Shown in pieces: positions 22,403 to 59,672 of a stretch of 64,000 nucleotides of DNA (within the stretch, counting starts at the first letter, position 1; each line of letters begins with the position of its first letter). The DNA is from an uncultured virus (IMG/VR IMGVR_UViG_3300029305_000620) (taxonomy: Duplodnaviria > Heunggongvirae > Uroviricota > Caudoviricetes). The position numbers were made by a program, and so were the translations under genes. The stretch lies in IMG/VR virus record IMGVR_UViG_3300029305_000620. One strand, written 5' to 3'. The notes below the pieces were generated by a model that did not search any database, was not told the DNA's origin, and saw nothing but the letters and a program-made list of their open reading frames with translations.

Positions 22403-22439
22403 GCTTACCTCCTTGTGTTTTTTGTGGCTTATGCCAAAG

Positions 22440-22511
22440 AGCTGCCAGCAGGATTCGAACCTGCAACCCGCTGATTACAAATCAGCCGCTCTGCCGTTGA
22501 GCCATGGCAGC
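22440..22511 (-). tRNA. tRNA-Thr(TGT)
   Basis: GCTGCCA acceptor, CTGAT-TTGTAA-TCAG anticodon arm, GGTTCGAATCC T-arm. Confidence 0.9.
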
Positions 22512-22641
22512 ATGTGCTATAGGGAGCCTTTGCCCGGTCGCAACGGGAGGCTCCCGCCCTGGGCGATAGTGAGAAAGTCCCAGCGGCTCGGCTTCACTTG
22601 CCTATGGAGGTGTAGACAATGGCACTGCTCATGCCTGCTAC

Positions 22642-22705
22642 TGGTGCGGCCTGCCGGAGTCGAACCGGCCAGCGTGGGAGTTTAACGCCTGAACCCCTGC
22701 CGCAC
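22642..22705 (-). ncRNA. Degenerate tRNA-like element ending in CCA
   Basis: T-arm GCCGG-TTCGACT-CCGGC and GCGGC/GCCGC-ACCA acceptor; no D-arm, 9-nt loop. Confidence 0.45.
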
Positions 22706-22869
22706 ATACTGGCGGGCGCTCCTTTGATACCCCTGGTGTACAGGAGCGCCATCGTGGTCTCATGCAGCCCATTCCTATAACCGCATGATTGTCCACCGAC
22801 CGGGGCACGCTTCCCCCTAAGGAGGTCTCCTCCCCGTGAGGGAAGGCGACGGATCGGGCTACCCGCCCG

Positions 22870-22944
22870 TGGTGCACCAGGATGGTGTCGAACCATCTCA
22901 CCCCCGGTTATGAGCCGGATGCTCTTCCGTTGAGCTACTGGTGC
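22870..22944 (-). tRNA. tRNA with CAT anticodon, most like Ile2 (lysidine type)
   Basis: GCACCAG acceptor, TCCGG-CTCATAA-CCGGG anticodon arm, encoded CCA; lacks initiator features (three G-C anticodon pairs, 1-72 mismatch). Confidence 0.8.
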
Positions 22945-23027
22945 ATACGAGCGGCGCTGACGTCCAATTCCCACATAGTCCGCAGCGCCGCCGCTGAAAG
23001 GATGACGGAGGGTGTCCAGGCCTCCGT

Positions 23028-23101
<74 letters not shown>

Positions 23102-25732: not shown

Positions 25733-26824
25733 ATGAAACGACAGTTTATTCTGTTGGTTCTTCTTTTTTTGTTTCTATTTTCTATGCCAGCGCATGCTCA
25801 TCCAGGTTCAACCGATGAATATGGTGGTCATTATGACTATGATGCTGGCGAGTATCACTACCATCACGGCTATCCTGCGCATCATCATGGATTCGGAACA
25901 TGCCCATATGATTTTGATGACCGCACCGGAGAGAATTCCGGCACTCCTGGCATCGGCTCCAGTACATACCTGTATACCACAGCCCCTCGTCCGCTTCAAA
26001 CCACGAGGGTCACTTCTCCGAAACATGATTCAGATCTTCTTACAGGTATTAAGTGGCTTGGCATGATGATCGCTGTATTTGTGTTCCTGTTCATCATGGC
26101 CTGTGTATTCGGCGGTCGCCCCCGCAAACCACGCACAGAAAACACGGACAATTCTCCTTCATCTCTACCGAAACAATCAGATACTCTGTCTTCTGCCTAT
26201 AACGAGGCACACAACCTGAACCGTTTGAGTGGCCTGTCGGTTATCACAGATACACGTCCGAGTCCACCTGCTCCTCCACCGCAGCCGCCGCTTCCATTAC
26301 CTGAACCAGCGCCCGTACCCCCTCCCGATCCAACACCGGAACCAGAAACTGTGTCAGCACCTCCTTCCCGCAAGATGGATTCACCTGTGCCCGTCCCGGA
26401 TCCTGTACAACCGATCAGACCAACGTCTTCGGTTGTACCCGGTGATCCGGAACCGGAAGAAGGAGACATTCCTGACTGTCCTAACCTTTACCGCTCCCAG
26501 TACCCTGCAACATGGTCATACATAAATCGCAACGCAGATCACTCCGAAAGCTATATATACTACTACCATTTTGTATGGGGAGAACTGCAAGCGAAGCATG
26601 GTGACGGCATCATATATGGCAGCCTATCAGAGGATGAACAGGCGCTTGTCAACTACCCTCCCATCGGCAAAACCGTTTATATTTCTGCGGTCAACAGTAA
26701 AACCTATCATTCTACCCCTAACTGCTATGCTCTACTGAAGTCTACTCCTATCGAAGTCGATGTGATACACACCATCGTGAGGAAACGCTGTACCAAATGT
26801 GTAGCACCGCGCGACATAGAATAA
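25733..26824 (+). CDS. Membrane protein with signal peptide, YHYH domain, TM helix, Pro-rich linker and C-terminal Zn-type motif (moron)
   Basis: HPGSTD..GGH.D....YHYHHG; TM ~aa 105-127; YHSTPNC...CTKC. Confidence 0.75.
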   Translation: MKRQFILLVLLFLFLFSMPAHAHPGSTDEYGGHYDYDAGEYHYHHGYPAHHHGFGTCPYDFDDRTGENSGTPGIGSSTYLYTTAPRPLQTTRVTSPKHDSDLLTGIKWLGMMIAVFVFLFIMACVFGGRPRKPRTENTDNSPSSLPKQSDTLSSAYNEAHNLNRLSGLSVITDTRPSPPAPPPQPPLPLPEPAPVPPPDPTPEPETVSAPPSRKMDSPVPVPDPVQPIRPTSSVVPGDPEPEEGDIPDCPNLYRSQYPATWSYINRNADHSESYIYYYHFVWGELQAKHGDGIIYGSLSEDEQALVNYPPIGKTVYISAVNSKTYHSTPNCYALLKSTPIEVDVIHTIVRKRCTKCVAPRDIE

Positions 26825-28056: not shown

Positions 28057-29205
28057 ATGACCTGCCGCAAATGCTCCCGCGCTCTCCCGGAGGGCGCTGT
28101 GTTCTGCCCTGCATGCGGTGTTCGCCAGCAGCGACGCCAGCAGAATCCCAAGTCCAAGGGGAATGGTACTGGCAGCATCTATAAGGATGCCTCCCGTTCC
28201 GGCTGGGTCGTGGCCTACACCACCGGAAAAAAACTTGTCCGTCTGCCCGACGGCACGATGAAGCTTCGTCTTGATCGTCACAAAAAAACCGGCTTCCCCA
28301 CCAAGAAGGCCGCAAACGAATATCTTGCCCAGGTGATCGCCTCCGGCGAAGCCCGGCACATCAAGAAGGTTCCCACCGTCGCGCAGCTGTACGATCAGTA
28401 CGAAAATGCTCCCGGCAAAAAGCCGGGAGCCTCCACCCTGACTGCGTATCGTACCGCCTATAATCGCCGTATCGGTCCTGCCATCGGTGATCTTGAAATT
28501 GATGTCGTTACCCTCCAGCACCTTGAAGGGATCGTCCATGGCCTGACCTACGATCCCGCCAAGGACGTGAAGGACCTCATGTCCAAGTTGTTCCAGCGCG
28601 CCATGGCAGATGGCTTTGTGCAGATCAATCCCTGCACGCTTCTTTCCCTGCCGGAGAAAACCAGCACGGAGATCCCCGCATGGCAGCCGGATGAGATCGA
28701 GCGCCTCTGGCATGCCTGGGATGGGGGAGACCGCATCGCCGCCACTTGCCTGCTCATGATCCACACCGGCATGATGCCCGGTGAGCTGTTCAAGCTTAAA
28801 TCTGATATGATCAACTGGGATGCCCGCACCATCATCGGCTGCGGCCTCAAAACGAAGGAGCGCAAGGAGAAGCCTATCGTTTTCCCTTCGGTGATCGACC
28901 CTGTCCTCCGGGATCTGTGCGATACGTCCGTTTCTCGCCAAGGCTATGTCCTGGGCATTAACAAGGACAAATACTACGATCTTTTCTCCCGGATGAAGAA
29001 TTCTTTGCACATCCGCCCCGAAGTCCGTCCGTATTCTTCCCGCCACTCCACCGCTACGGAGCTGGAGCTGCTGGGTGTTTCTCCGTCCGTCATCGCCTCT
29101 GTCCTGCGTCACAAATCCTACGCCACTACCGCCAAGCATTACATCGACATTACCACGGACAAATCCCGCGCAGCTGTCGATCTTATTTCCCGCAAGCCTG
29201 AGTAA
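28057..29205 (+). CDS. int: Tyrosine integrase with N-terminal zinc ribbon
   Basis: CxxC..CxxC, GNGTGSIYK arm domain, TGMMPGEL, YSSRHS, LRH...TAKHY; adjacent att. Confidence 0.9.
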   Translation: MTCRKCSRALPEGAVFCPACGVRQQRRQQNPKSKGNGTGSIYKDASRSGWVVAYTTGKKLVRLPDGTMKLRLDRHKKTGFPTKKAANEYLAQVIASGEARHIKKVPTVAQLYDQYENAPGKKPGASTLTAYRTAYNRRIGPAIGDLEIDVVTLQHLEGIVHGLTYDPAKDVKDLMSKLFQRAMADGFVQINPCTLLSLPEKTSTEIPAWQPDEIERLWHAWDGGDRIAATCLLMIHTGMMPGELFKLKSDMINWDARTIIGCGLKTKERKEKPIVFPSVIDPVLRDLCDTSVSRQGYVLGINKDKYYDLFSRMKNSLHIRPEVRPYSSRHSTATELELLGVSPSVIASVLRHKSYATTAKHYIDITTDKSRAAVDLISRKPE

Positions 29206-29459
29206 TGGGAGCAATAGTGGGAGCAATAGGACGCAATTCCTATCTAAACGTACCCAAATGTGACAAATCACCAAACATCCAACCACAAACAAAAATAGCC
29301 GCAAACCCTTGAAAACAGCGGGTTTGCGGCTATTTAGCGCAGATGGAGAGATTCGAACTCTCGCACCGGTTATCCCAGTCTACTCCCTTAGCAGGGGTTG
29401 CAAGAATCCAGTAAAATCAAGGGATTGAGGTGTCACAGGGAGCAATGTGGGAGCAATAG
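29206..29459. other. attP-like site: tRNA-Ser(GCT) 3' half flanked by integrase arm repeats
   Basis: TGGGAGCAATAG x2 at 29206-29229, GGGAGCAAT and TGGGAGCAATAG at 29438-29459; core 29337-29397; hairpin 29293-29335. Confidence 0.85.
29337..29397 (-). pseudogene. 3' fragment of tRNA-Ser(GCT) (att core)
   Basis: CCCCTGCTAAGGGAGTAGACTGG...GAGAGTTCGAATCTCTCCATCTGCGC; tRNA structure stops within the anticodon stem, no D-arm. Confidence 0.85.
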
Positions 29460-29551
29460 ATATTTTTCTCCACGCTGTTTCCCAAAGCAAGTATATCATG
29501 ATTTTCTCCTTTTGACAATGGAAAAACCGCCCCTTTCGGGGCGGCTGGGTG

Positions 29552-30385
29552 TCAGTTATGCTTCACAATGTGCTTCACATATTCCTCCACCTTGTTGTCC
29601 TTGGCGTCAGGATCTTCGATGAAGCACTTTGCCAGGTGTGCGTAGAAATCTGGCTTGTCCACGCCGAACTTCTTTCCTACCTTGTGGAAGTCAGCATACA
29701 TGGCGTTCATGGCCCAGAAGAACTCCAGCAGCCTCTGCTGGCCGGTGATTCCCATGTTCATGGCGTATTGCTGCGCTTGATGCCAGGTATACTTTCCGCC
29801 CCTCACGCCTTCGCCGTCCTCCATGTCCTCCACCCATCTCATGACTGTATCCTTATCCAGGCCGTTTTCGCTTGCCTGCTGGAAGCCGATCTGCCGCGGC
29901 TGTTGGAAATGTTCCTTCCCGTCGCGCTGATCCAGGGGATCGGTCTTGTGCATGAAGTAGCTGACGTTTCCGTATCCGCCGTCGGGCCGATTGTAGTTGA
30001 TCTCTCCAGCGGACGTTTTTCCGTCAGTCATCCGGCGCATTTCGCTATCGTTGCGCTTTTCTTCCTGCCGGCGGTACACTTCCGGCTGTCCGCCGTATGG
30101 ATTCTGCCCATCGGGCTGATCTTCCATCCTCCGCATCCGGCTATCATCCAGATACGGAGGCATGTGTGGTTCCGGCCAGTAATGAGATGTTGCACCGCCC
30201 TGCTCCATACGTCCGTAGTTACCCTGGTTACCTTCCATGTAACGTCCGCGGGAATCACGGCGCCGGCGCATTTCCGGCGCATCCATCATGTTCATCTGGT
30301 CGCCTTCCATGTATCTGCCACGGGAGTCGCGCTGACCGGCTCTTGCCATTGCCATCATACGCATGCCGCTGGACATCTTGCCCAT
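29552..30385 (-). CDS. Cargo operon gene 5: Met/Gly/Arg-rich protein with RDSRGRYMEG repeats and a helical C-domain
   Basis: 277 aa; FFWAMNAMYADF...FYAHLAKCFIEDPDA. Confidence 0.75.
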   Translation of the reverse strand: MGKMSSGMRMMAMARAGQRDSRGRYMEGDQMNMMDAPEMRRRRDSRGRYMEGNQGNYGRMEQGGATSHYWPEPHMPPYLDDSRMRRMEDQPDGQNPYGGQPEVYRRQEEKRNDSEMRRMTDGKTSAGEINYNRPDGGYGNVSYFMHKTDPLDQRDGKEHFQQPRQIGFQQASENGLDKDTVMRWVEDMEDGEGVRGGKYTWHQAQQYAMNMGITGQQRLLEFFWAMNAMYADFHKVGKKFGVDKPDFYAHLAKCFIEDPDAKDNKVEEYVKHIVKHN

Positions 30386-30399
30386 AACGTCACCTCCCC

Positions 30400-30822
30400 T
30401 TACGCAACGCGGATCAGCGTCAGGCTGGCCGCATTAACGGTGATTTCATCAGCGCCAACATTGGCAAGGCCCACGGTGATGGACGCGCCGCAAGGCACGC
30501 GCACCAGGGCTGTGGTCGCCAGCTGCGCCACATCGTCCGCCGCGGTGATGGTCTCGGCCATGGTTGTTCCTGCCAGCGCCTCGCCATTGGTGGTGATCGC
30601 CAGGGTCGCAACCGTGCCGGCAACCGCCGACGTGACCTGAGTGCCAACGCCTACCAGGTAGATGCCGGGACGGGAGATAAGGAACTGACCGCTGCCGTCC
30701 TCATGGGTGAGCCAGCCGCCGTTGCAGTAGCAGGAATTGTTCGTGCGTGCGCGGGATCCGGGGAACAGTACATTCGCGCCGGCCGCAACAGCAACAGGGA
30801 TCGTCACAAAAGCGTTAATCAT
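30400..30822 (-). CDS. Cargo operon gene 4: beta-rich protein resembling the BclA C-terminal/C1q fold
   Basis: GSGQFLISRPGIYLV...NAASLTLIRVA. Confidence 0.6.
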   Translation of the reverse strand: MINAFVTIPVAVAAGANVLFPGSRARTNNSCYCNGGWLTHEDGSGQFLISRPGIYLVGVGTQVTSAVAGTVATLAITTNGEALAGTTMAETITAADDVAQLATTALVRVPCGASITVGLANVGADEITVNAASLTLIRVA

Positions 30823-30907
30823 AGTATTTCTCCTTTCAAAAACAGGGGCGGATATTCTCCGCCCCTTTGTGGTTGTGGGGAATGGCGGAGCGCCAAACTA
30901 TCCCGGA

Positions 30908-31648
30908 TTATGCGAAGTTGTTGCAGCTGCCGTTGTAGCCGTAGCCGACGCCCAGCGGGTTGCCGTAGCAGCAGTTGGGGTTGGGCACGACGTAGGCAGG
31001 CACGGGGCAATCGCGGCCCAGACGGCGGATCAGCTCTGCGGTCTGCGCGTCCTGGTTCGCGGTGATGAAGGCGTTCTGCTGTGCCTGAGAGGCCGCAAAC
31101 TTCAGCGCCTGGTTCTCCGCGGTCAGGGTGCTGATCTTATCGGTGGTCAGGAAGTCCAGGATCGCGCGGGTGTTGGCGTTCTGGTTATCCATCAGGTCGC
31201 GGGTGGCGTTCTGAATCAGGTTGCGGGTGTCGCACGCCTGAGTGGCCATGTCATAGCGCACCTGGGCGATGGCGGCACGGTTCTCGCAGCAGCAGTCGGA
31301 AATCTGGTGAGACAAATCACACAGGCCGCGATCCACGCCGTGGAAGCCATTGGTGATGGTGCCGGTCAGCGCGTAGGTCGCGTCAGCGATGCCCTGCTGG
31401 ATGGCAGTGATACCGCTGGTGATGTTGTTGAGGGCAAAACCCTCGTTGATGTCCGCACGGGTGGCCATGCCCTGTATGCCAGCGCCGCCACCGAAGCCGC
31501 CAAATCCTCCGAAGCCCAGACCGCCGCCCAGTAGCGCGATCAGCAGCAGGATGCCCAGCCAGCCGCCGGAGCCACCGCCGAACCAATCACCGCCGGAGTT
31601 GTTGTTGTCCTGACCCATGGCGTAACCCATGGCAAAATTCTCGTCCAT
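30908..31648 (-). CDS. Cargo operon gene 3: Gly-rich hydrophobic N-terminus, CCC motif, coiled coil
   Basis: GGWLGILLLIALLGGG, DINEGF, CCCENR, PVPAYVVPNP. Confidence 0.8.
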   Translation of the reverse strand: MDENFAMGYAMGQDNNNSGGDWFGGGSGGWLGILLLIALLGGGLGFGGFGGFGGGAGIQGMATRADINEGFALNNITSGITAIQQGIADATYALTGTITNGFHGVDRGLCDLSHQISDCCCENRAAIAQVRYDMATQACDTRNLIQNATRDLMDNQNANTRAILDFLTTDKISTLTAENQALKFAASQAQQNAFITANQDAQTAELIRRLGRDCPVPAYVVPNPNCCYGNPLGVGYGYNGSCNNFA

Positions 31649-31733
31649 AAAATTCTCCTTTCTTCTGCGATCGCAGAATTTTTCTTTGCGATCGCGTATC
31701 TATGCTAAAGGCCGCGTGCACTCAGCCCTTGCA

Positions 31734-31997
31734 TCACTTGATGCCCAGCCTCTCGATCAGTGCCGGGATGGTCACGCCGCGCTTTGCGGCGAGGTTCTGG
31801 ATGATGCCGGTGACCGCTTGCGGTGCATTCCCGCTGATGATCTGCATCGCCTGCATGACCGTGGGGTCTTTTTTGGCGAGCTTCGGCAGCACGTCCTGCG
31901 GGCGCTTGCCGGATCGCATGGCATCCATCAGGGTCTTCATGGTGTTATTCGTCGGATTCTGTTGCGGGCTTTGCCTTCCGAACAGGCTGCTTGCCAT
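31734..31997 (-). CDS. Cargo operon gene 2: small Gln/Met-rich helical protein
   Basis: 87 aa, coupled to the upstream gene. Confidence 0.7.
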   Translation of the reverse strand: MASSLFGRQSPQQNPTNNTMKTLMDAMRSGKRPQDVLPKLAKKDPTVMQAMQIISGNAPQAVTGIIQNLAAKRGVTIPALIERLGIK

Positions 31998-32349
31998 TTG
32001 CGATCATCTCCTTCAGTTCGTCGAATTCCTGCCGGGTGACGTATTCCGTCTGCTGAGTCGGTGCTGCCTCCTGCATCGGGGCAAAGGTATACGCCGCAAT
32101 GGTCGGGTATCCGCCAGCGTCCGTCCTCTTGATATACATCACGTCACGGTCTGCATCAAACAGGGCGGCTACGCTGTTGGGGGCCAGAGGGTACGCCTTC
32201 GCGCCCTCCATGCCGGTCACCTGGATCAGGCCCGGTGCTGTCTGCTGCTGGGGGATCGGGGCCATCGGCGTGTAGTAATTGCGGGCCGGTGCCTGGGGCT
32301 GCTGGTACTGCATCGGGTAGGGATTGCCGTAGATAGGCTGGTTGAACAT
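31945..32349 (-). CDS. Cargo operon gene 1: Gln/Pro-rich protein
   Basis: VTGMEGAKAYPLAPNS...YIKRTDAGG...EYVTRQEFDEL. Confidence 0.75.
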   Translation of the reverse strand: MFNQPIYGNPYPMQYQQPQAPARNYYTPMAPIPQQQTAPGLIQVTGMEGAKAYPLAPNSVAALFDADRDVMYIKRTDAGGYPTIAAYTFAPMQEAAPTQQTEYVTRQEFDELKEMIANGKQPVRKAKPATESDE

Positions 32350-32401
32350 GTTGCATCGCCTCCTTGCACCAAAATTGTCCCATAATTCGCCGTTTTTCAC
32401 G

Positions 32402-32451
32402 ATGAAAGGACGGTGCAACCTCTGGGCAAGGAAAGTGCAAATTCCGTGCAA
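32402..32451 (-). promoter_or_regulatory. Five TTGCAC-like boxes with 11-bp periodicity upstream of the cargo operon
   Basis: TTGCAC, TTGCAC, TTGCCC, TTGCAC, TTTCAT at 32451, 32440, 32429, 32418, 32407. Confidence 0.7.
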
Positions 32452-32453
32452 CA

Positions 32454-32481
32454 TAAAAAAGCCCACCCCGTAGGGTGGGCC
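32454..32481 (-). terminator. Terminator after the lysis/HTH genes
   Basis: GCCCACCCTACGGGGTGGGCTTTTTT. Confidence 0.75.
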
Positions 32482-32487
32482 TGATGG

Positions 32488-32673
32488 TCAAAGTATCTTC
32501 TTTTTGTTCCGCTGCACGACGTACTTCACGCCACGGGCGCTCATGCCGACTTCTTCTGCCAGCGCCTCATAGGTGATTCCGTCGATCAGCTTGCGGGCCA
32601 TGATCTGCCTGTCCCGCTTGGAGTGGATGCGTTCCCGGATGTTGTTCGCAAGGGTGCTGTTGTCAATGTCCGT
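32488..32673 (-). CDS. Small sigma-region-4-like HTH protein; ACG at the start position
   Basis: (M)DIDNSTLA...RDRQIMARKLIDGITYEALAEEVGMSARGVKYVV; RBS GGGGGTGA, in-frame TGA just upstream. Confidence 0.65.
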   Translation of the reverse strand, partial: TDIDNSTLANNIRERIHSKRDRQIMARKLIDGITYEALAEEVGMSARGVKYVVQRNKKKIL

Positions 32674-32688
32674 CGCGCATCACCCCCT

Positions 32689-33051
32689 TTACATCAGCGG
32701 CGTCTGCGGTTCCTCGTCCTCATCGGACGTCTCCTCATCGTCGGGCAGCTCATCAGTATTTTTGTGCTTTCCCCACTCGCCGAAGTGCATCTTCACGGTG
32801 GCCTCAATCATATTTCGGTCAATGGTATATCCGCGCTCCATCAGCTGCGCTTCGACATAGGCCAGCTTATCCTCGCCGTGGCCGGAACCATAGAGCTGCT
32901 CGGCTGCAAAGCACAGCGTGCGGTAGAGTCCCGCCAGGGCCTCCTGCTGCTGGACGCTGGCCTTGGCCTTTATCCACGGGATGACAAAGGCGGTAATGAC
33001 AGCCGCCAGCAGGGCGATGATGGCGTTGAACAGGTTAGTCAGATCAATCAT
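32689..33051 (-). CDS. Holin (LL-H-like)
   Basis: N-terminal TM, AAEQLYGSGHGEDKLAYV, IEATV. Confidence 0.8.
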   Translation of the reverse strand: MIDLTNLFNAIIALLAAVITAFVIPWIKAKASVQQQEALAGLYRTLCFAAEQLYGSGHGEDKLAYVEAQLMERGYTIDRNMIEATVKMHFGEWGKHKNTDELPDDEETSDEDEEPQTPLM

Positions 33052-33066: not shown

Positions 33067-33321
33067 TTACTCGACAACACGCCAGTCAGTAGCAAGCATG
33101 TCGCTCTGAGAGGCAAGCCAGCCCAGCTGCACACCGCTGGTTCCAACAAACGCAAATGCCTGATTGCCAATCGCGTCATGGTTCGCATTGACAATTTCTC
33201 CCTTAGCGTTCATATACGAGATGTTGGTGGCAAGCTCGACATACTGGTTCTTTCCGTTCCAACCGCTGCGGGCGATACGCGCACCCTGCTTGGCCATGTT
33301 GATAGCGTTTCCGAAATTCAT
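33067..33321 (-). CDS. DUF2829 / Tad2-like anti-Thoeris sponge protein
   Basis: MNFGNAI...GARIARSGWNGK...GWLASQSDMLATDW. Confidence 0.75.
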   Translation of the reverse strand: MNFGNAINMAKQGARIARSGWNGKNQYVELATNISYMNAKGEIVNANHDAIGNQAFAFVGTSGVQLGWLASQSDMLATDWRVVE

Positions 33322-33336
33322 GTTAATTCTCCTTTC

Positions 33337-33588
33337 TTACCAGTCGGCGATGCACTGGTTCTCAAACTTCTTGTAGGCATCAATGTACCACTCTTTCTTG
33401 TCTCCATTATAGGTGACTTCGTAGTACATGCCATCAGACAGTGTGGTCGAAATCAGATACTTCCAGTTCTGAAGGATCTTGCTTTTCCATACGATGAACA
33501 CACCGAATGTGGTGGCAGTATCCGACTTATCCAGGTGCTTGTTAGCATAGTCTCTGACAAGACTCATTGCCTTTACGTCCATGTCCAT
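33337..33588 (-). CDS. DUF6275-like protein
   Basis: VFIVWKSKILQNWKYLISTT..DGMYYEVTYNGDKKEWYIDAYKK. Confidence 0.7.
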   Translation of the reverse strand: MDMDVKAMSLVRDYANKHLDKSDTATTFGVFIVWKSKILQNWKYLISTTLSDGMYYEVTYNGDKKEWYIDAYKKFENQCIADW

Positions 33589-35531: not shown

Positions 35532-36641
35532 TTAATATGCCTTGATGTAGTCAGCGTAGGTTGCCCAGTTGGTCGCCGCAATCCACTCGTCGTAGAGGGC
35601 CGCAGGGACACGGATTTCGCAGTCGGCGGGGATGCCGGTGAATGCGTTTGTATTTGCCAGCGACGGTACTGCTGTGTGAGCTGTGAAATCGTAGAAAGCA
35701 ACGCCATTGCAACCGTAGAAAGACCTCGCTTCGATAGAGATGACTTGCGCTGGGACGATCACGGATGCAAAACTGGAGCAGGAAGAGAAAACTGAGTTTC
35801 GATATGATGTAACGCCTCTCTCTGGATAAGACACGAAAGACAAGCCGTAACAATTTGCAAACTGGTTCGACATAGTTGCCATTACAGTTTCTCCGGTCGG
35901 AACTGTAATATATTTCAGCCCAGTGCATCCGTAGAAAGTATATGCTCCTTGCAAAACAACATTGGCGGGGATCGATACGGATGCGAGGCTGATACAGCTA
36001 TGGAAAGCAACGCCTTCAAGTTGAACATTTGCGCCTATTTCAGCTTTACGGACTGCATAAAGGTAATTTTTATTGCGGTTGTCCGAACTTTCTGAGTGCC
36101 GCAAAACACAGGAACCACCTGTGCCTGTCATACCAAGAAGTCCCATCTCGCCATCCACCGTCAACCGGATAACGTAATCACCCGGCGCGGCGTATGCATG
36201 TTCCGGTGTCCACTTGGTCGTGCTTATATCCGTACCCGTCAGCACATTCGGCTCCGTCCCATCGCCCCAGTCCACCGTTACCGTGCCATTCACACCCACG
36301 CCCAGCATGGGGCTGGTGCGGCCTTCCTGCAAGGTGATATACAGGCGGGTCGTGCCGTCATCGGTGGTGTACATCGCACCGATATTCATGGCGCGGGTCA
36401 GGCCCTTCACGCCCTCCAGCGACCAGTTCCAGCCCTGAAACACAAGCCCGGGATGCTCCGGGCCAGCAGGGAGTTCGGACAGGGCTTGCGCTTCTGCTAC
36501 CGTGTAGGCATGAACGCAAGTGCCGTCGTAGTCGTAGAAGTTGACCTCCTTGGGACTGACACCAGCAGACCCGCCGCCCGAGCCGGAGGAGCCCCCGCCA
36601 CTACCGAACAGCGTTGCCATGATCAAGTCTTTTCCGACCAT
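35532..36641 (-). CDS. BspA-type leucine-rich-repeat protein (putative receptor binding)
   Basis: AFxxCxxLxxVxIP repeats, VDWGDG, IRVPAALYDEWIAATNW. Confidence 0.8.
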   Translation of the reverse strand: MVGKDLIMATLFGSGGGSSGSGGGSAGVSPKEVNFYDYDGTCVHAYTVAEAQALSELPAGPEHPGLVFQGWNWSLEGVKGLTRAMNIGAMYTTDDGTTRLYITLQEGRTSPMLGVGVNGTVTVDWGDGTEPNVLTGTDISTTKWTPEHAYAAPGDYVIRLTVDGEMGLLGMTGTGGSCVLRHSESSDNRNKNYLYAVRKAEIGANVQLEGVAFHSCISLASVSIPANVVLQGAYTFYGCTGLKYITVPTGETVMATMSNQFANCYGLSFVSYPERGVTSYRNSVFSSCSSFASVIVPAQVISIEARSFYGCNGVAFYDFTAHTAVPSLANTNAFTGIPADCEIRVPAALYDEWIAATNWATYADYIKAY

Positions 36642-37392: not shown

Positions 37393-39837
37393 TTATTGAC
37401 CGACAACATCCACGTCAACAAAGAGCTTGTGGCCCACCTTCTCGACCTTGGTGATCTTGTAGCTTGTGCCGCGCTGCAGGATGACCTCGAACTCATAGCC
37501 GAAGCCGCTCTGCCCGGACTTGCCGTCCCAACTCGGGGACTTCGCACCGTGTCCGTATGCGGAGAATGGTTCTGCATAGATCATCTTGGTGCCCTTGGGC
37601 GCGTAGATGTTAAGGATCAGACGGCCACCGAATCCGCTGCCCTTCGCTGCTGCCGCGGATGTGAATGCCTCATCCTTCACGACCTTGCCCACAAGCATCT
37701 GTTTGAGCTCTGCCTCGGATGCATCAAGCATCTTCTGCGGGATGCCCAGGAAGCCAGCCGCGCCGGGGTCGCTTTCCACGCCGCGTTGCAGCCAGATGTC
37801 GAAGTTGTACTTGCTCTTGTTGATGAGGTCGGTCATGTGCTGGATCGCCGCGCCGCTGCCCTCATAGTCGAGGTCAACCTTGCCAACACCCTTGAAGAAG
37901 CTGTTGCTCCAGCCGCCCGCATAGCCGCGCAGAGGGCGGTTGAAGGGGCCGCTGCCCGACGTGTACTTGTAGACCGCCTGACGCTCTGCAAGCGGCGCAG
38001 AGGCCCACAGCGTGCCGGTATCGGGGCGCAGCACCTTGTCTGCGCGGGGCTTCGCATCGTTGCCCGTAAACCAGTATGCCTTATCCTTGCGAGCCTTGGA
38101 GAACTTGTCATCCTCCAGCATGTAGCGCTTGCGCACAGCAGCCAGCTCATCGGTCAGGTCAAGCAGCTTCTTCTCCAGCTTCGCGATCTCTGCCGGATCG
38201 CCAACCGTGTCGGACAGCTTTTCGAGGGTGTCCTTGAACAGCTGCTTCTTGTAGTACGGGACGCTTGCATCCATCAGGCCCTTCATGGTCAGCTCGCCGT
38301 AGCTATCGACGAACTTCTTGATCGTGTCAACCTCCATATCAGGCGTGATGGTTTGGTACGCCTCAATGAGCTTCTTCTGGTCGAAGTTCTTGACCTTCGT
38401 GCCCATGGAGACCTTTTTCTTCTTGGTCAGCCCGGCGATCTTGGCAGTCAGATCGTCGATGTCCTTCTGCATCTTGTCCGGGTCAATGCCGCGAATCTTC
38501 ATGACTTCCCGGCTTGCCGCCTTGAGCTTCTCCGTCGCATCATCCAGCGCCTTGCCCAGCGTGGTGTACTTATCCTTGGCCAGCAGGTACTTCTTGCCCG
38601 CGGCCTCGAACTCATCGCACAGGTCGAGCATGTCCTGCTTGCTGTTGGCCTGGAAGTAGGCGCGCTTGGCAGGCAGGCGGTCTTTGAGGGTTTCGTAGTC
38701 CTTCGCAGTGACCGGGTTCTTCCAGATGTTCACGAACTGCTTGGAGTCGATCTGCTGCATCTCATCCTCAGCGGCTTTGCAGTCCGCTTTCAGCTTCGTA
38801 TGCTCGCTCATCAGCTGCATTTCCTTCTGGCGTGCCAGTTCCTCCGGGGTAGGCCCAGAGGATGGGAAGTGCCGCCCGGTGGCCTTGAAGAACTCCGCAT
38901 CCGTCATGAGCCTGCGGGAAGCGCGGCACCGGCAGTTGCAGTCATGCCCGGCCACACCGCTGCAGCCAGGGCAGGAGGCGAAGTTGCCGTCCTTGAGGTC
39001 GAACTTCTCATCCGCCAGCACCACCTGTCCATTGAGGATCATGTGGTTCGCGCTGGATTTCGAGATGCCCCGCTTCCAGCCCTTCTTGGACTTGCGGACG
39101 TACTGCGGGCGGACGCGCTCGTCCCCCATGTTCTTCCACGTCTTGGTCATTCTCAGGCCCGAGGTGCCGTCCTGCAGCGCCTTGTCCACCGCAACGCCTG
39201 CATCATCGTTGCCGGCTTCCCGGACGCGGTGAGCCTCCGTGCGGGCAATCAGCACGGCGTTCTTGTAGGGGCCGTTCTCCTTGTCCAGTGCGGTGGTGAT
39301 CCTCTTGGCGATGGTGGAGTACCTGTCGCCGTTCATGAGGCCGATGCCGACCGCCTGCCGGATGTCGTAGATAATCGTCTTGTGGTTTTTCAGCAGCGCA
39401 ACTTCCATGTGGGGGTTGCTGACCGCCGCCTTGATCTGCTGCGGTGTGATCTGAACGACCTCTGAAAAGGTTTCACCCAGGTCTGCACCCTTGGCCACCT
39501 TCTCAACGCCCTGCACCATGCTCTGGTAGCTGAGCTCGTAGACTTCCTCGACCAGCGCATGCAGCTCCTTGGCCACCTTGGGGGTCGCCACACCGATGCG
39601 CTTCTCGATCTCCGCCAGGAAGCGTGCGTCATAGCCCTTCGCCTGAAGGTCAGCAAAGGACAGTGTGCCGTCTCCCTTGGCAAATTTCTCGTGCACCTCT
39701 CCGACGTAGGCTTTCAGATCCTTCAGCAGGGACTTGAATATCTTGTGGATTTCTTTTTCCGCGCCAGCTTCCCGGTGTGCTGCGATTCTCCGGGCCTGGG
39801 CCTCATACCACTCAAGGTCTTTCGCCATGCCCGTCAC
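37393..39837 (-). CDS. MuF minor head protein fused to a VIP2-like ADP-ribosyltransferase
   Basis: IARTEAHR, KTW, DERVR, NCRC (MuF); YT.GS..FN..LR, LQRG, FTSAA, EFEVILQRG (ART). Confidence 0.85.
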   Translation of the reverse strand: MTGMAKDLEWYEAQARRIAAHREAGAEKEIHKIFKSLLKDLKAYVGEVHEKFAKGDGTLSFADLQAKGYDARFLAEIEKRIGVATPKVAKELHALVEEVYELSYQSMVQGVEKVAKGADLGETFSEVVQITPQQIKAAVSNPHMEVALLKNHKTIIYDIRQAVGIGLMNGDRYSTIAKRITTALDKENGPYKNAVLIARTEAHRVREAGNDDAGVAVDKALQDGTSGLRMTKTWKNMGDERVRPQYVRKSKKGWKRGISKSSANHMILNGQVVLADEKFDLKDGNFASCPGCSGVAGHDCNCRCRASRRLMTDAEFFKATGRHFPSSGPTPEELARQKEMQLMSEHTKLKADCKAAEDEMQQIDSKQFVNIWKNPVTAKDYETLKDRLPAKRAYFQANSKQDMLDLCDEFEAAGKKYLLAKDKYTTLGKALDDATEKLKAASREVMKIRGIDPDKMQKDIDDLTAKIAGLTKKKKVSMGTKVKNFDQKKLIEAYQTITPDMEVDTIKKFVDSYGELTMKGLMDASVPYYKKQLFKDTLEKLSDTVGDPAEIAKLEKKLLDLTDELAAVRKRYMLEDDKFSKARKDKAYWFTGNDAKPRADKVLRPDTGTLWASAPLAERQAVYKYTSGSGPFNRPLRGYAGGWSNSFFKGVGKVDLDYEGSGAAIQHMTDLINKSKYNFDIWLQRGVESDPGAAGFLGIPQKMLDASEAELKQMLVGKVVKDEAFTSAAAAKGSGFGGRLILNIYAPKGTKMIYAEPFSAYGHGAKSPSWDGKSGQSGFGYEFEVILQRGTSYKITKVEKVGHKLFVDVDVVGQ

Positions 39838-57395: not shown

Positions 57396-58631
57396 TCAAA
57401 TGAAGCTCGGCGTGCTCGTGTCTTCTTCACGCTTGCGCTTCACCATTTCGAGATAACGCTCATAGGCGGAGGATTTCTGCTGGGTAAAGGACAGGCCCTT
57501 GCACCAGTAGTCATTGCGCAGCAGGCACTTGCACACGCGCCGCCAGCTGGGCACATCCTTCTTCTGTTCGAGCTGGTAGTCGGCCTCATCGGGGATGCCG
57601 TCGGGGTAGCCTCTTTCCTGCCACCACTTGACGAACTTGTAGATTTTGTTCTTGTAGTGCTCCTGCGTTTTCGGGGGCATGGAGTTGATCAGAAGGTTCG
57701 CGAAGCTCTCCCAGGTGTGGCCCTCCGGCCTGGAGACCTTGTTGTAGCCGTTGATGTTGCCGCGCTCGTTGATGTACATAGCACCGCTATTCGCGCCATT
57801 GACGCGGGCCACTACCTTCGCCCAGGTGTCGGGCTCGATCAGGTGGAACAGCCACAGGCCGCGCCGCTGATCGTCGCCGTAGGGCTGGCAGATGCGCATC
57901 TGATGGATGGTAAGCCCGGCCAGGTGCATGTAGTCATACAGCTCATTGTAGGGCTTATCGGGGTTCTTGCCCTGGTAAATCCAGTCGTCCTCCGTCTTCC
58001 AGTCGTAGATCGGATAGACGTTGTATGTATGCTCCGTGACCTTTGTCGTCCACATCCGGCCCTCATACGGCGTTTTGTACCGGTTGGCAATCGTGCGGTA
58101 TCGGTTCAGGCTTTCGTCGGATCGGATGCCCACGCAGCACGCGCAGCTCTTGCCCTGCGAATACCATTCACCGAATAGCGGCACAAACTCCTCGAACTCC
58201 ATGCCGTCCACAAAGAACGGGAAATAGGCCGGATCGGAAATGCAATCCTTGGGCATGGGGCGAATCCAGTTCTTTTCGGCCTCAGCGTCCCAGCACTTCC
58301 GGAAAGGCTCATACACCGAGACGGCGTTGCGCAGATGGATCGGCAGGCAGCACCAGTACCATTCCGAGTGATCCTTGTACATTTCGCGGCACTTCTCCGC
58401 GTGGTCGATGGTTTTCTTGTACTGGCCCTCAAGGTCAATCAGCAGCACGCCCACCTTGCGCCCGCGCTTGATGGCTTCGTCCATCACCATGTGGAGCATA
58501 CAGGTGCTATCCTTGCCGGCAGAGAACGAGACGTAGATGCGCTCGAACGTGTCAAACGTCCAGGCAATGCGCTGCTTGGCGGCCTCGTAAACATTCATGC
58601 TGAGATATGTTTTCAAAACATAGCCCTCCAT
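57396..58631 (-). CDS. PAPS-reductase/DUF3440 family protein (IbrA/YbdN-like)
   Basis: SFSAGKDS, GIRSDESLNR, YPIYDWKTED, MRICQPYG, NDYWCKGLSF. Confidence 0.85.
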   Translation of the reverse strand: MEGYVLKTYLSMNVYEAAKQRIAWTFDTFERIYVSFSAGKDSTCMLHMVMDEAIKRGRKVGVLLIDLEGQYKKTIDHAEKCREMYKDHSEWYWCCLPIHLRNAVSVYEPFRKCWDAEAEKNWIRPMPKDCISDPAYFPFFVDGMEFEEFVPLFGEWYSQGKSCACCVGIRSDESLNRYRTIANRYKTPYEGRMWTTKVTEHTYNVYPIYDWKTEDDWIYQGKNPDKPYNELYDYMHLAGLTIHQMRICQPYGDDQRRGLWLFHLIEPDTWAKVVARVNGANSGAMYINERGNINGYNKVSRPEGHTWESFANLLINSMPPKTQEHYKNKIYKFVKWWQERGYPDGIPDEADYQLEQKKDVPSWRRVCKCLLRNDYWCKGLSFTQQKSSAYERYLEMVKRKREEDTSTPSFI

Positions 58632-59026
58632 TCATCGAACATGGAAATCTGCTGCCCGTGTTCCGTATCGTGTGTGTGCAGCCATTCTTTGATGACGGTG
58701 GTTGCGATTGCGTTCGCGGTGGTGCGCTGGGGAATGGTGAGCAGCCCCCAGGCTTCCCGCGTTTCGTCCTCATGCACGCCGCCGTAGATGCTGCAGCAGG
58801 CTTGCCCCAGCCACGCGCGGCGGTTGATCCCGGCGTTGGAAAGGTTGAACTCCGTCGCCACCGGCCAGGTGTCAACCACCATCCGCATTGCCTTCTCACA
58901 GGTGGCCGGATCACCAAGGATGGAGGCCGCGAGCTTCACACGCTCATTGCGGGACTCCCTGTCCTCGTCGTACATGCCGTGGTGGAAGTCCTCCCACTTG
59001 TTATAGTGATGAAAAATCCGTTTCAT
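58613..59026 (-). CDS. Hypothetical protein inside the IbrAB-like locus
   Basis: WEDFHHGMY...NRRAWLGQACC; overlaps both neighbours. Confidence 0.7.
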   Translation of the reverse strand: MKRIFHHYNKWEDFHHGMYDEDRESRNERVKLAASILGDPATCEKAMRMVVDTWPVATEFNLSNAGINRRAWLGQACCSIYGGVHEDETREAWGLLTIPQRTTANAIATTVIKEWLHTHDTEHGQQISMFDEWRAMF

Positions 59027-59672
59027 CCAGGCCGCCTCCCAGGTCGTCAGAAATATCGACCTCCCACGCCGTGGAGAACTCCTTGTCCGCGAACATTTCA
59101 GCCAGGCCGGTGATCTGCGAGAGGCGAAGCACCTCGTCCGCGTCCATGCCCAGCTCGCGGGCAATCTTGGCATCGCTCCAATTCCGGCGCTTGAGCTCGA
59201 CCACGATGTCGCTCATGGCCTCGACGCGATGCTTGCCGCGGGCGCGGTTGTGTCGGATCGTCGAAGCAATGCGGTCACCCTTTTCCTCGCGGTCATTGTT
59301 GATGACGACCACGGGAAGGTAGCCGTGAATGCGGTCTGCGATGTCCTGGTATTCCTTGCCGACGCGGTTACGGTGGAAGCCGTCAACGACTTCATAAATG
59401 CCGTCATGCTGCCATACAACAATCGGCTGGGTGTAGCCGTCCTCCTGGATGGAAACGTGCAGCAGCTCCATTTCGGGAGGAGCAACGCTGTTCGGGTTGT
59501 AGTCGTTGGCGATGACCTGATCTGCCTTGACCCACTGGACACATTCCACCGGCTCGGCGGTAAAGGGACTGATCTCCTTCAGGAGGGCCTTGACCTCATT
59601 GATTGCGATGACCTTTTCGCCCAGCTCCATCCCGGAGATTTCCAGCAACTTCTCGCGCAATGCGTTATCCAT
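59001..59672 (-). CDS. ParB/Srx-like protein (IbrB/YbdM-like)
   Basis: ANDYNPNSVAPPEM, DGYTQPIV, VVDGFHR, STIRHNRARG. Confidence 0.85.
   Translation of the reverse strand: MDNALREKLLEISGMELGEKVIAINEVKALLKEISPFTAEPVECVQWVKADQVIANDYNPNSVAPPEMELLHVSIQEDGYTQPIVVWQHDGIYEVVDGFHRNRVGKEYQDIADRIHGYLPVVVINNDREEKGDRIASTIRHNRARGKHRVEAMSDIVVELKRRNWSDAKIARELGMDADEVLRLSQITGLAEMFADKEFSTAWEVDISDDLGGGLDETDFSSL

Follow-up and report, generated by a model that had tools for sequence, protein, structure and literature searches.

Positions 29,552 to 32,673 of a 64,000-nucleotide stretch of DNA from an uncultured virus (IMG/VR record IMGVR_UViG_3300029305_000620; the whole stretch is here called the window, and all coordinates refer to it) hold a cassette of five co-oriented genes, g1 to g5, preceded by a small helix-turn-helix (HTH) gene. 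The five genes are a unit: their order is conserved, the families at certain positions are exchangeable, the block is spread across many phages and it is accompanied by flanking signals. Our favoured interpretation – tentatively held – is that gut phages share a widespread, mobile accessory operon of which this region is one copy; its products, made late, would form a complex without enzymatic activity at the infected cell's membrane and act on the host. An initial annotation of this DNA had proposed instead a lysogen-expressed structural assembly such as a spore-surface or exosporium fibre. The elements on which it drew – HTH gene, terminator, phased boxes, five genes, closing terminator and phage attachment site (attP) – are all in place, with every cassette element on the minus strand.

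A conserved unit with exchangeable families

Relatives were collected from one genome per species. The scan confirmed 84 relatives of g3, and 80 of these were retained; together with three phage records they make up 83 loci, and families were counted with iterative profiles built on the open reading frames (ORFs) of those loci. The anchor gene is g3 (30,908–31,648; 246 amino acids (aa)), which matches phrog_16490 over residues 12–243 (E 4.2e-60) and is present in 81 of the 83 loci. Upstream lie g1 (31,945–32,349; 134 aa; phrog_21718, E 1.2e-15), found in 71 loci and in these always upstream of g3, and g2 (31,734–31,940; 68 aa, helical), whose family occurs in 34; downstream lie g4 (30,400–30,822; 140 aa, a beta protein; phrog_20016, E 4e-12), with 43 loci, and g5 (29,552–30,385; 277 aa; Pfam DUF7841, E 2.9e-18), with 26. 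Membership of g1, g3, g4 and g5 in these catalogued families is clear, and phage records show the same gene order. Almost everywhere the sequence is g1, a small protein, g3, a protein of about 140 aa and one of 150–290 aa: the synteny search thus bears out the five genes as a co-occurring, ordered block.

The occupants of three positions are exchangeable. Directly upstream of g3 (position −1) stands either g2 (26 loci) or a Met/Gln-rich protein of 62–85 aa, phrog_22984 (25 loci); directly downstream (+1) either g4 (32+5 loci) or a Cys-rich beta protein of about 135 aa (22+4); and at +2 either g5 (21 loci) or phrog_28802, of about 150 aa (27). Alternatives at +1 and at +2 have a homology probability of 0.1–0.2% by hhalign, and those at −1 of only 32%. 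All four combinations at +1/+2 occur, the pair g4 and g5 of the window being among the rarer ones. The two families at the fifth position nevertheless have a short motif in common, RDSxGRY, which is found in 4 of 24 g5-type and 11 of 27 phrog_28802-type proteins as against 23 of the 7,252 ORFs of all loci. Exchangeable alleles suggest an arms race. They also require a correction: the HTH gene had been counted as a sixth member of the unit, but its family adjoins the cassette in only 15 of the 83 loci, and positions −1, +1 and +2 are each held by either of two families.

In 16 loci (L008, L017, L023, L025, L034 and 11 others) the block is extended by phrog_3754, a further catalogued family of about 125 aa whose gene stands directly 5' of g1. 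The window does not have it. The family has an invariant Asp-Cys, His and Asp and is possibly a papain-like enzyme, which would make it the sole enzyme of the extended block. These invariant residues, together with the Gln-rich g1, had suggested a bacteriocin with a double-glycine leader or a transglutaminase-cross-linked coat; both ideas were dropped, nothing beyond composition having been found for them.

The g3 family has at least 7,999 relatives (all scored candidates passed), none of them named beyond 'hypothetical protein'. Many carrier contigs are 37–50 kb long, approximately the size of a phage genome, and the family is tied to phages; the four matches in a plasmid collection lie on phage-like or very large records and give no sign of life outside phages. 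Carriers include Bacteroides phages, the cultured lysogen Anaerotruncus colihominis DSM 17241 (locus L010) and contigs binned to Prevotella and Paludibacteraceae, and on a 61.9-kb circular record of B. thetaiotaomicron the g3 homologue lies about 4 kb from an integrase.

Three genome types illustrate how the position of the block varies. The Butyrivibrio phage Ceridwen has, in order, the endolysin, small genes, an HTH gene, a terminator, phrog_3754, g1, a small protein, g3 and g4, with a phrog_28802-type gene further on. According to its description only a lytic cycle was seen, and its authors thought it virulent (PMC7372960). In the crAss-like phages cr115_1 and cr52_1 the holin is followed by a LysB/FtsL-like gene, then by a gene for a DUF7841 protein that matches the g5 profile at E 3e-30, and next by a g3 homologue with two unknown genes behind it: the pairing of g5 with g3 outlasts a change of gene order and of phage order. 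Cultured phages of Bacteroides fragilis are among the 38 phage records that contain DUF7841, and Foldseek superposes the proteins of further crAss-like phages on it with a root-mean-square deviation (rmsd) of 1.4–2.1 Å over about 100 residues. Finally, Dulem virus 35, a complete circular genome whose cassette, like that of Ceridwen, opens with phrog_3754, carries the block between a MuF-like minor capsid gene and the scaffold and capsid genes, far from lysin and integrase. The cassette thus follows the lysis genes in most loci and sits in the head module in Dulem virus 35. Expression in the lysogen, as first proposed, is not supported by this distribution: a phage described as only lytic carries the cassette, the crAss-like phages have it beside the holin and Dulem virus 35 within a block of head genes.

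Signals around the cassette

Hairpins with T runs stand on both sides of the cassette. The upstream one (32,459–32,482, minus strand; a stem of 10 pairs, 7 of them GC) lies directly 3' of the HTH gene, and a closing one (29,525–29,546, minus strand; 9 pairs, 7 GC, T run) follows g5. Strict hairpin-plus-T-run terminators flank the cassette on the upstream side in 26 of 75 loci and on the downstream side in 26 of 79, compared to about 2% of random windows; in loci that bear the HTH gene its stop codon is directly followed by the hairpin and T run. Insulation of this kind is a hallmark of phage morons, a class of insert described for HK97/lambda-type phages in which a promoter, a gene and a terminator lie as one unit between phage modules. 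The cassette has such insulating terminators, in the window and enriched around its relatives, and resembles a moron also in having upstream signals of its own, in lying between lysis genes and attachment site, and in moving between unrelated phages. It differs in comprising at least five co-adapted genes rather than one, in occurring in phages described as lytic only, and in being possibly activator-dependent instead of constitutively expressed from a prophage.

Between the upstream terminator and g1 lie four TTGCMC boxes with a period of 11 bp (32,413–32,451, minus strand; in order TTGCAC, TTGCAC, TTGCCC, TTGCAC), a candidate regulator-binding array. The pattern TTGCMCN5TTGCMC has three overlapping matches here and no others in the 64-kb window, where 0.06 would be expected (100 shuffles): the array is not due to chance. 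Outside the window it recurs upstream of the cassette in Ceridwen, L007, L025 and L006 (three matches, thus again four boxes); the rest of the other 82 loci lack it. The phased boxes and the terminator of the initial annotation are real. In L006 the alignment shows terminator, boxes and leader retained, with unrelated DNA in place of the HTH gene; because the boxes persist there without that gene, they belong to the cassette. On their 3' side three close relatives have GTCCTTTCATCGTG and TGnGAnAAT in common. The window reads TGGGACAAT at this point (32,374–32,382, minus strand; about 25 nt 5' of the g1 start codon), a putative extended −10-like element, and the aligned positions read TGGGAGAAT in L006 and TGCGAAAAT in L007, with TGnGAnAAT kept. 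A strict extended −10 pattern is not enriched upstream of relatives (3 of 75 loci against a background of 3%). From boxes and element together we infer an activator-dependent promoter for the cassette.

An obvious candidate activator is the HTH gene (32,488–32,667, minus strand), the final gene of the transcription unit of the holin (32,689–33,051, minus strand; Phage_holin_6_1, E 7e-07; phrog_6918, E 1e-17). Its product resembles region 4 of sigma-70 (Sigma70_r4_2, E 0.004; HTH_24, E 0.0016; both under the Pfam cut-offs); if a region-4-like protein made with the holin activates the cassette, the cassette would be a very late operon. The gene encodes 37 aa from the ATG at 32,601, or 59 aa if read from an in-frame ATT at 32,667–32,665. 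The homologue in L007 has 59 aa, is 83% identical and matches Sigma70_r4_2 at E 2e-05. Its ATG aligns with the ATT of the window, and the gene of the window therefore either uses a rare start codon or is shortened. Just upstream lies a mini-ORF of five codons (32,663–32,680, minus strand; ATG at 32,680), whose TGA overlaps the ATT (ATTGA), an arrangement that suggests possible stop-start coupling onto the rare HTH start codon.

Within the cassette, Shine-Dalgarno sequences precede all five genes. The spacer between g2 and g3 contains a perfect 16-bp palindrome, TTCTGCGATCGCAGAA (31,663–31,678), with a second GCGATCGCA copy on its 5' side, and between g3 and g4 there is a GC-rich hairpin with a weak T tail (30,844–30,866, minus strand), possibly an attenuating terminator. 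In RNA libraries of two animal-gut studies, contigs that are 90–99% alike cover g5, g4, g3, part of g1 and the HTH gene, and two of them bridge g3 and g4 across this hairpin. Relatives of the cassette are thus present in RNA libraries, although DNA carry-over is possible, and neither timing nor lysogenic versus lytic expression can be read from these contigs. In four runs the cassette is covered and there is little or no contig cover over the terminase-to-portal and lysis genes; as these runs had been selected with keywords of the cassette, and their contigs stem from many mosaic relatives, the uncovered parts are no evidence of silence.

The five proteins and their candidate complex

The most conserved of the five proteins is g3. 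An acidic N-terminal tail that contains neither Lys nor Arg is followed by a hydrophobic stretch and a linker rich in GGFGG; after these come a long helix that carries CCC at residues 119–121 and a Cys-rich tail. The CCC is invariant across 69 g3 sequences. An AlphaFold2 model built with these 69 relatives predicts a helix at residues 29–40 and one unbroken helix of 136 residues (75–210), with a predicted local distance difference test score (pLDDT) of up to 93; as modelled, it has the look of an oligomeric coiled-coil subunit folded alone. Only g3 has a membrane-type segment: its maximal hydropathy over 19 residues is 2.12, as against 0.84 or less for g1, g2 and g5, and the four other proteins have neither membrane segment nor export signal. 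Across the 69 relatives the mean number of Lys and Arg is 0.65 in the 30 residues before the helix and 1.9 in the 45 after it, which mildly favours a topology with the N-terminus outside and the C-terminus inside, the stalk being cytoplasmic together with its partners.

By family alignment, g1 consists of a Gln/Pro/Tyr-rich N-terminus, a conserved beta-rich core of about 55 aa and a C-terminal helix. The g4 protein matches the C-terminal domain of BclA (BclA_C, PF18573; E 5.3e-07) over nearly the whole 128-position model with 30 bits, where the cut-off is 38 and was not reached, and 7 of 41 members of its family match at E<=0.01; a distant relationship is likely. BclA forms the exosporium nap of Bacillus anthracis and B. 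cereus, and its C-terminal domain is a TNF/C1q-like trimer. However, g4 stands alone, without the collagen-like stalk and the N-terminal targeting region: its translation contains no collagen-like GXX run, and the 140-aa protein opens directly with the beta domain. The description of g4 as BclA/C1q-like hence stands as a distant match, below the cut-off and without the collagen-like repeats.

This match speaks for the idea, put forward first, of an exosporium structure expressed from the prophage, in which a BclA-like fibre would be joined to Cys-rich cross-linked partners. The Cys-rich and Gly/Tyr-rich tails of g3 and the Gln-rich g1 do recall spore-coat proteins, and the moron-like position between lysis genes and attachment site would suit such a cargo. 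Yet neither Butyrivibrio nor Bacteroides sporulates. A phage of Butyrivibrio fibrisolvens described as lytic, crAss-like and Bacteroides phages, contigs binned to Prevotella and Paludibacteraceae and the 61.9-kb element of B. thetaiotaomicron are all carriers, so that the host range largely refutes the exosporium reading; the missing repeats and the sub-threshold score of g4, and the lack of an export signal or membrane segment in four of the five proteins, argue in the same direction. We regard a spore-surface role as very improbable. The broader notion of a structural assembly or membrane complex is still reasonable, given one membrane-type protein with a long helix.

The g5 protein begins with a short helix, continues with about 150 disordered residues rich in Arg, Met and Tyr, among them two RDSRGRYMEG repeats, and ends in the helical DUF7841 domain (PF25223), which residues 170–271 match with 66.6 bits against a cut-off of 25.2. 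The match recurs in 22 of 24 family members, and the AlphaFold2 model has pLDDT >90 over residues of about 180–260. Longer fused forms of DUF7841 were not found, weak evidence as this search goes. The fold of this domain bears on a further alternative, a membrane-gated transcription switch in which DUF7841 would act as a region-2-like and the HTH protein as a region-4-like sigma component, the TTGCMC boxes would be their target and g3 an anti-sigma-like tether. A wide VIA-align search with the g5 model returned sigma region-2 domains in most of its top 30 rows – AlgU (Z 4.9, rmsd 3.8, 73 residues aligned), BldN (Z 4.8, rmsd 3.0, 70 aligned), SigH (Z 4.8), also sigma-28 and sigma-70 – the best rows having Z 4.0–4.9 over about 70 residues at an rmsd of 3–4 Å. 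In addition, depositors of the crAss-like homologue labelled it 'RNA polymerase sigma factor/ubiquitin-like protein', the HTH protein matches Sigma70_r4_2, and TTGCAC, in our reading, resembles a −35 hexamer. By the range given for the tool itself, however, Z <5 for a small helical domain denotes a common arrangement; Foldseek with the g5 model against the PDB gave nothing at E<=0.001, no PDB sequence was matched by the g5 profile, and no Sigma70_r2 match at E<=1 was found in the 24 family members. Moreover, the alternative family at the fifth position is unlike DUF7841, and the HTH gene is seldom adjacent.

Known systems of this design are ECF sigma/anti-sigma pairs and the two-subunit sigma factor SigO-RsoA of Bacillus subtilis. 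The likeness lies in the weak region-2-like fold, the region-4-like HTH next door and a single-pass membrane protein in the operon; the difference lies in the absence of a sequence-level sigma signature, in the low Z and in a g3 without recognisable anti-sigma domain. We consider the switch improbable. A bolder version holds the block to be a new kind of phage machine common to Crassvirales and the tailed phages of Clostridia and Bacteroidota – a membrane-gated switch for transcription or host control whose sensor heads, g4 or the Cys-rich beta protein, are exchangeable – and would be just as long a shot.

As the initial annotation had noted, no enzymatic motif is evident: searches of Pfam, NCBIfam and PADLOC gave no enzyme family match for the five proteins. 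The PADLOC defence families have no match at E<=0.01 to the HTH protein, g1, g3, g4 or g5, while g2 has E 0.016 to PD-T4-6 over 46 residues; NCBIfam has no usable match for any of the five. Profiles of g1, g3, g4, g5, the phrog_3754-type family and the Cys-rich family, run against all PDB sequences, found nothing meaningful, and look-ups of g3 and g1 in the ESM Atlas returned only unnamed viral clusters.

An insulated mobile unit, without an enzyme and with one membrane protein beside four that have no export signal, is the reason for favouring a membrane-bound complex; that the block hops between structurally unrelated phages is the reason for placing its target in the host cell and not in the virion. 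We picture the complex as follows. The acidic N-terminal tail and the single hydrophobic helix of g3 would sit in the membrane and anchor the whole. Its helix, some 136 residues and, if straight, about 20 nm long, would with its invariant CCC serve as a stalk, probably oligomeric, with the Cys-rich tail at its end. A globular head would be supplied by g4 or, in other phages, by the unrelated Cys-rich beta protein of about 135 aa; g5 (or the unrelated phrog_28802) and g1/g2 would be adaptors rich in low-complexity sequence, and RDSxGRY, common to both families at the fifth position, could be a docking motif. The complex would be attached to the cytoplasmic side of the infected cell's membrane. 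Insulated by its terminators, the operon would probably be transcribed from its own promoter, switched on through the four phased boxes; the sigma-region-4-like HTH protein of the holin unit could read these boxes, so that expression would come late in infection and not in the lysogen. The most likely roles are a block of further phage entry, or the timing or assisting of lysis, though the role is a guess. The neighbourhood fits either exclusion or lysis control, with a Tad2-like anti-Thoeris gene two genes upstream and with lysis genes and integrase on either side.

Several points weigh against this interpretation. That the five proteins form a complex at all is our supposition, and the predicted template modelling score (pTM) of the g3 model is only 0.28. 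The proposed topology depends on a modest charge bias, and the TNF/C1q-like fold of g4 was deduced from a sub-threshold Pfam match. A consensus scan for promoters detected none of the sigma-70 type ahead of g1, the −10-like element being our own reading; the binding of the HTH protein to the boxes is presumed, and L006 has the boxes next to different DNA. Nothing is specific to exclusion as opposed to lysis control. Last, the head-module position in Dulem virus 35 and the virion-gene neighbours in crAss-like phages also fit a virion role.

Such a virion role is the main rival. The proteins could be accessory parts of the particle: either a fibre, with g3 as stalk, g4 or the Cys-rich protein as knob and g5 or phrog_28802 as assembly factor, or ejection proteins packaged in the capsid, the hydrophobic Gly-rich segment of g3 entering the membrane of the next host. 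The predicted long single helix and the separate small beta protein have the shape of a stalk-and-knob fibre, and the swapping of the knob and of the gene behind it resembles the exchange of fibre tip and chaperone. The genomic positions in Dulem virus 35 (between minor capsid and scaffold/capsid genes) and in crAss-like phages (beside virion structural genes) would follow naturally, as would the occurrence in phages described as lytic only. Weak fold matches of DUF7841 include head-tail adaptors (HK97 gp6, Z 4.0, rmsd 3.8, 67 residues aligned; FCWL1, Z 4.0, rmsd 2.8, 61 aligned). What speaks against particle proteins is that the same block is found in siphophage-type, crAss-type and other genomes with differing particles, whereas docking to a particle normally needs a matched partner. 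Terminator brackets and upstream boxes of their own are also unusual for structural genes, most loci have the cassette after the lysis genes and next to the integrase, and no solved virion chain was matched by the profiles of g1, g3, g4, g5 or the alternative families. On balance a virion function seems unlikely.

A second rival is suggested by the neighbours of the cassette. The cassette stands directly after the holin in the window; in Ceridwen it follows the endolysin and holin-like genes, and in crAss-like phages the holin and the LysB/FtsL-like gene. It could be an extension of the lysis module: a membrane complex that acts either as an antiholin-like timer of lysis or as a spanin-like device that completes the disruption of the envelope through fusion by the g3 coiled coil. 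A membrane helix at the N-terminus, a long helix and conserved cysteines are, as is generally known, also features of an i-spanin, and holin proximity adds to the likeness with two-component spanins, of which lambda Rz/Rz1 is one pair. But the cassette lacks the outer-membrane lipoprotein partner, as a hydrophobic signal with a terminal Cys is absent from the N-termini of g1, g2, g4 and g5. Clostridia, with their single membrane, are the hosts of most carriers and offer a spanin no target; the attachment site of the window is itself a Clostridia tRNA-Ser. Four of the genes have no counterpart in the spanin pair. About 15 kb separate the cassette from the lysin gene in Dulem virus 35, and in the window terminators part it from the holin unit. 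We think a lysis-module extension distinctly unlikely, less so than a transcription switch.

Flanking phage elements and significance

Downstream of the cassette lies the 3' part of a tRNA-Ser(GCT) gene (29,337–29,397, minus strand), 61 bases that span the anticodon stem to the 3' end of Clostridia tRNA-Ser(GCT) genes in alignment. Its last 28 bases (29,337–29,364) match 30 Clostridia contigs exactly, and in 8 of 8 that were scanned the match falls at the 3' end of tRNA-Ser(GCT). ARAGORN found no tRNA at 29,337–29,397. Since the 3' end is identical in Clostridia contigs and the 5' half is absent, attP is a fair name for the segment. Across it a tyrosine integrase with an N-terminal zinc ribbon (28,057–29,205, plus strand; Phage_integrase, E 2.5e-12; phrog_1, E 7e-42) faces the cassette. 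Its family occurs in 30 of the 83 loci; as read from the locus maps, in 25 of these it follows the cassette and is encoded on the other strand.

On the other side, the interval between endolysin and holin (33,067–33,588, minus strand) contains two genes, one Tad2-like (Thoeris anti-defence 2; Pfam E 1.7e-20) and one of the DUF6275 family (E 5.5e-29); by its gene content, the lysis region appears to double as a slot for accessory and anti-defence genes.

The window seems to join two phage-like elements. The left-hand one (2–29,205), past the attachment site, comprises the integrase, a 183-aa protein with HTH, coiled-coil and transmembrane parts (p183), a replication initiator, three tRNA genes (Thr, Met, Gly; 22,439–23,101), then TerS, TerL, portal, capsid and an internal virion protein, and ends in an ORF of at least 2,048 aa that runs off the window (phrog_22978). 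It also encodes a 363-aa protein (25,733–26,824, plus strand) with a signal-like N-terminus, one membrane segment, a long Pro-rich region and a YHYH motif rich in His and Tyr (a sub-threshold NCBIfam match, E 1.8e-06). The order cassette, integrase, p183 recurs in other loci and would tie the cassette to this element. The right-hand one (34,884–64,000) comprises a serine recombinase, a repressor, Gam, Erf, a ParB-like protein, a PAPS-reductase-like protein, SSB, RusA and a methyltransferase, followed by TerS, TerL, portal and MuF. Here the PAPS-reductase-like protein (phrog_2302, E 2e-84) adjoins the ParB-like protein (phrog_2159, E 3e-72), the pair lying at 57,396–59,672 on the minus strand, and the MuF-like minor head protein (814 aa; 37,393–39,837, minus strand) carries a C-terminal ADP-ribosyltransferase fusion (Phage_Mu_F, E 3e-09; ADPrib_exo_Tox, E 2e-15). 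Capsid and tail genes were not found in this element ahead of the lysis genes, the intervening DNA holding only small ORFs and a BspA-type LRR/PKD protein (35,532–36,641). A prophage with a deletion, an insertion and a chimeric assembly are all possible explanations.

The families of the block are catalogued (PHROG 22984, 28802 and 3754 of the relatives in addition to those of g1, g3, g4 and g5), and yet a literature search for DUF7841, phrog_16490 or the five-gene block found nothing, and no family member with a tested function. To this the window adds a clear regulatory layout – HTH gene, terminator and four phased boxes – a short motif that links two fifth-gene families, and arguments against a function bound up with spores or lysogeny. 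The cassette is present in a cultured pair, Ceridwen on B. fibrisolvens DSM 3071, so the question of its function can be taken to the bench. The block spans phages of the two dominant gut phyla, crAss-like phages included. Because unrelated phages keep acquiring this conserved, non-enzymatic, mix-and-match block, the module would appear to give a general advantage in infecting gut anaerobes.

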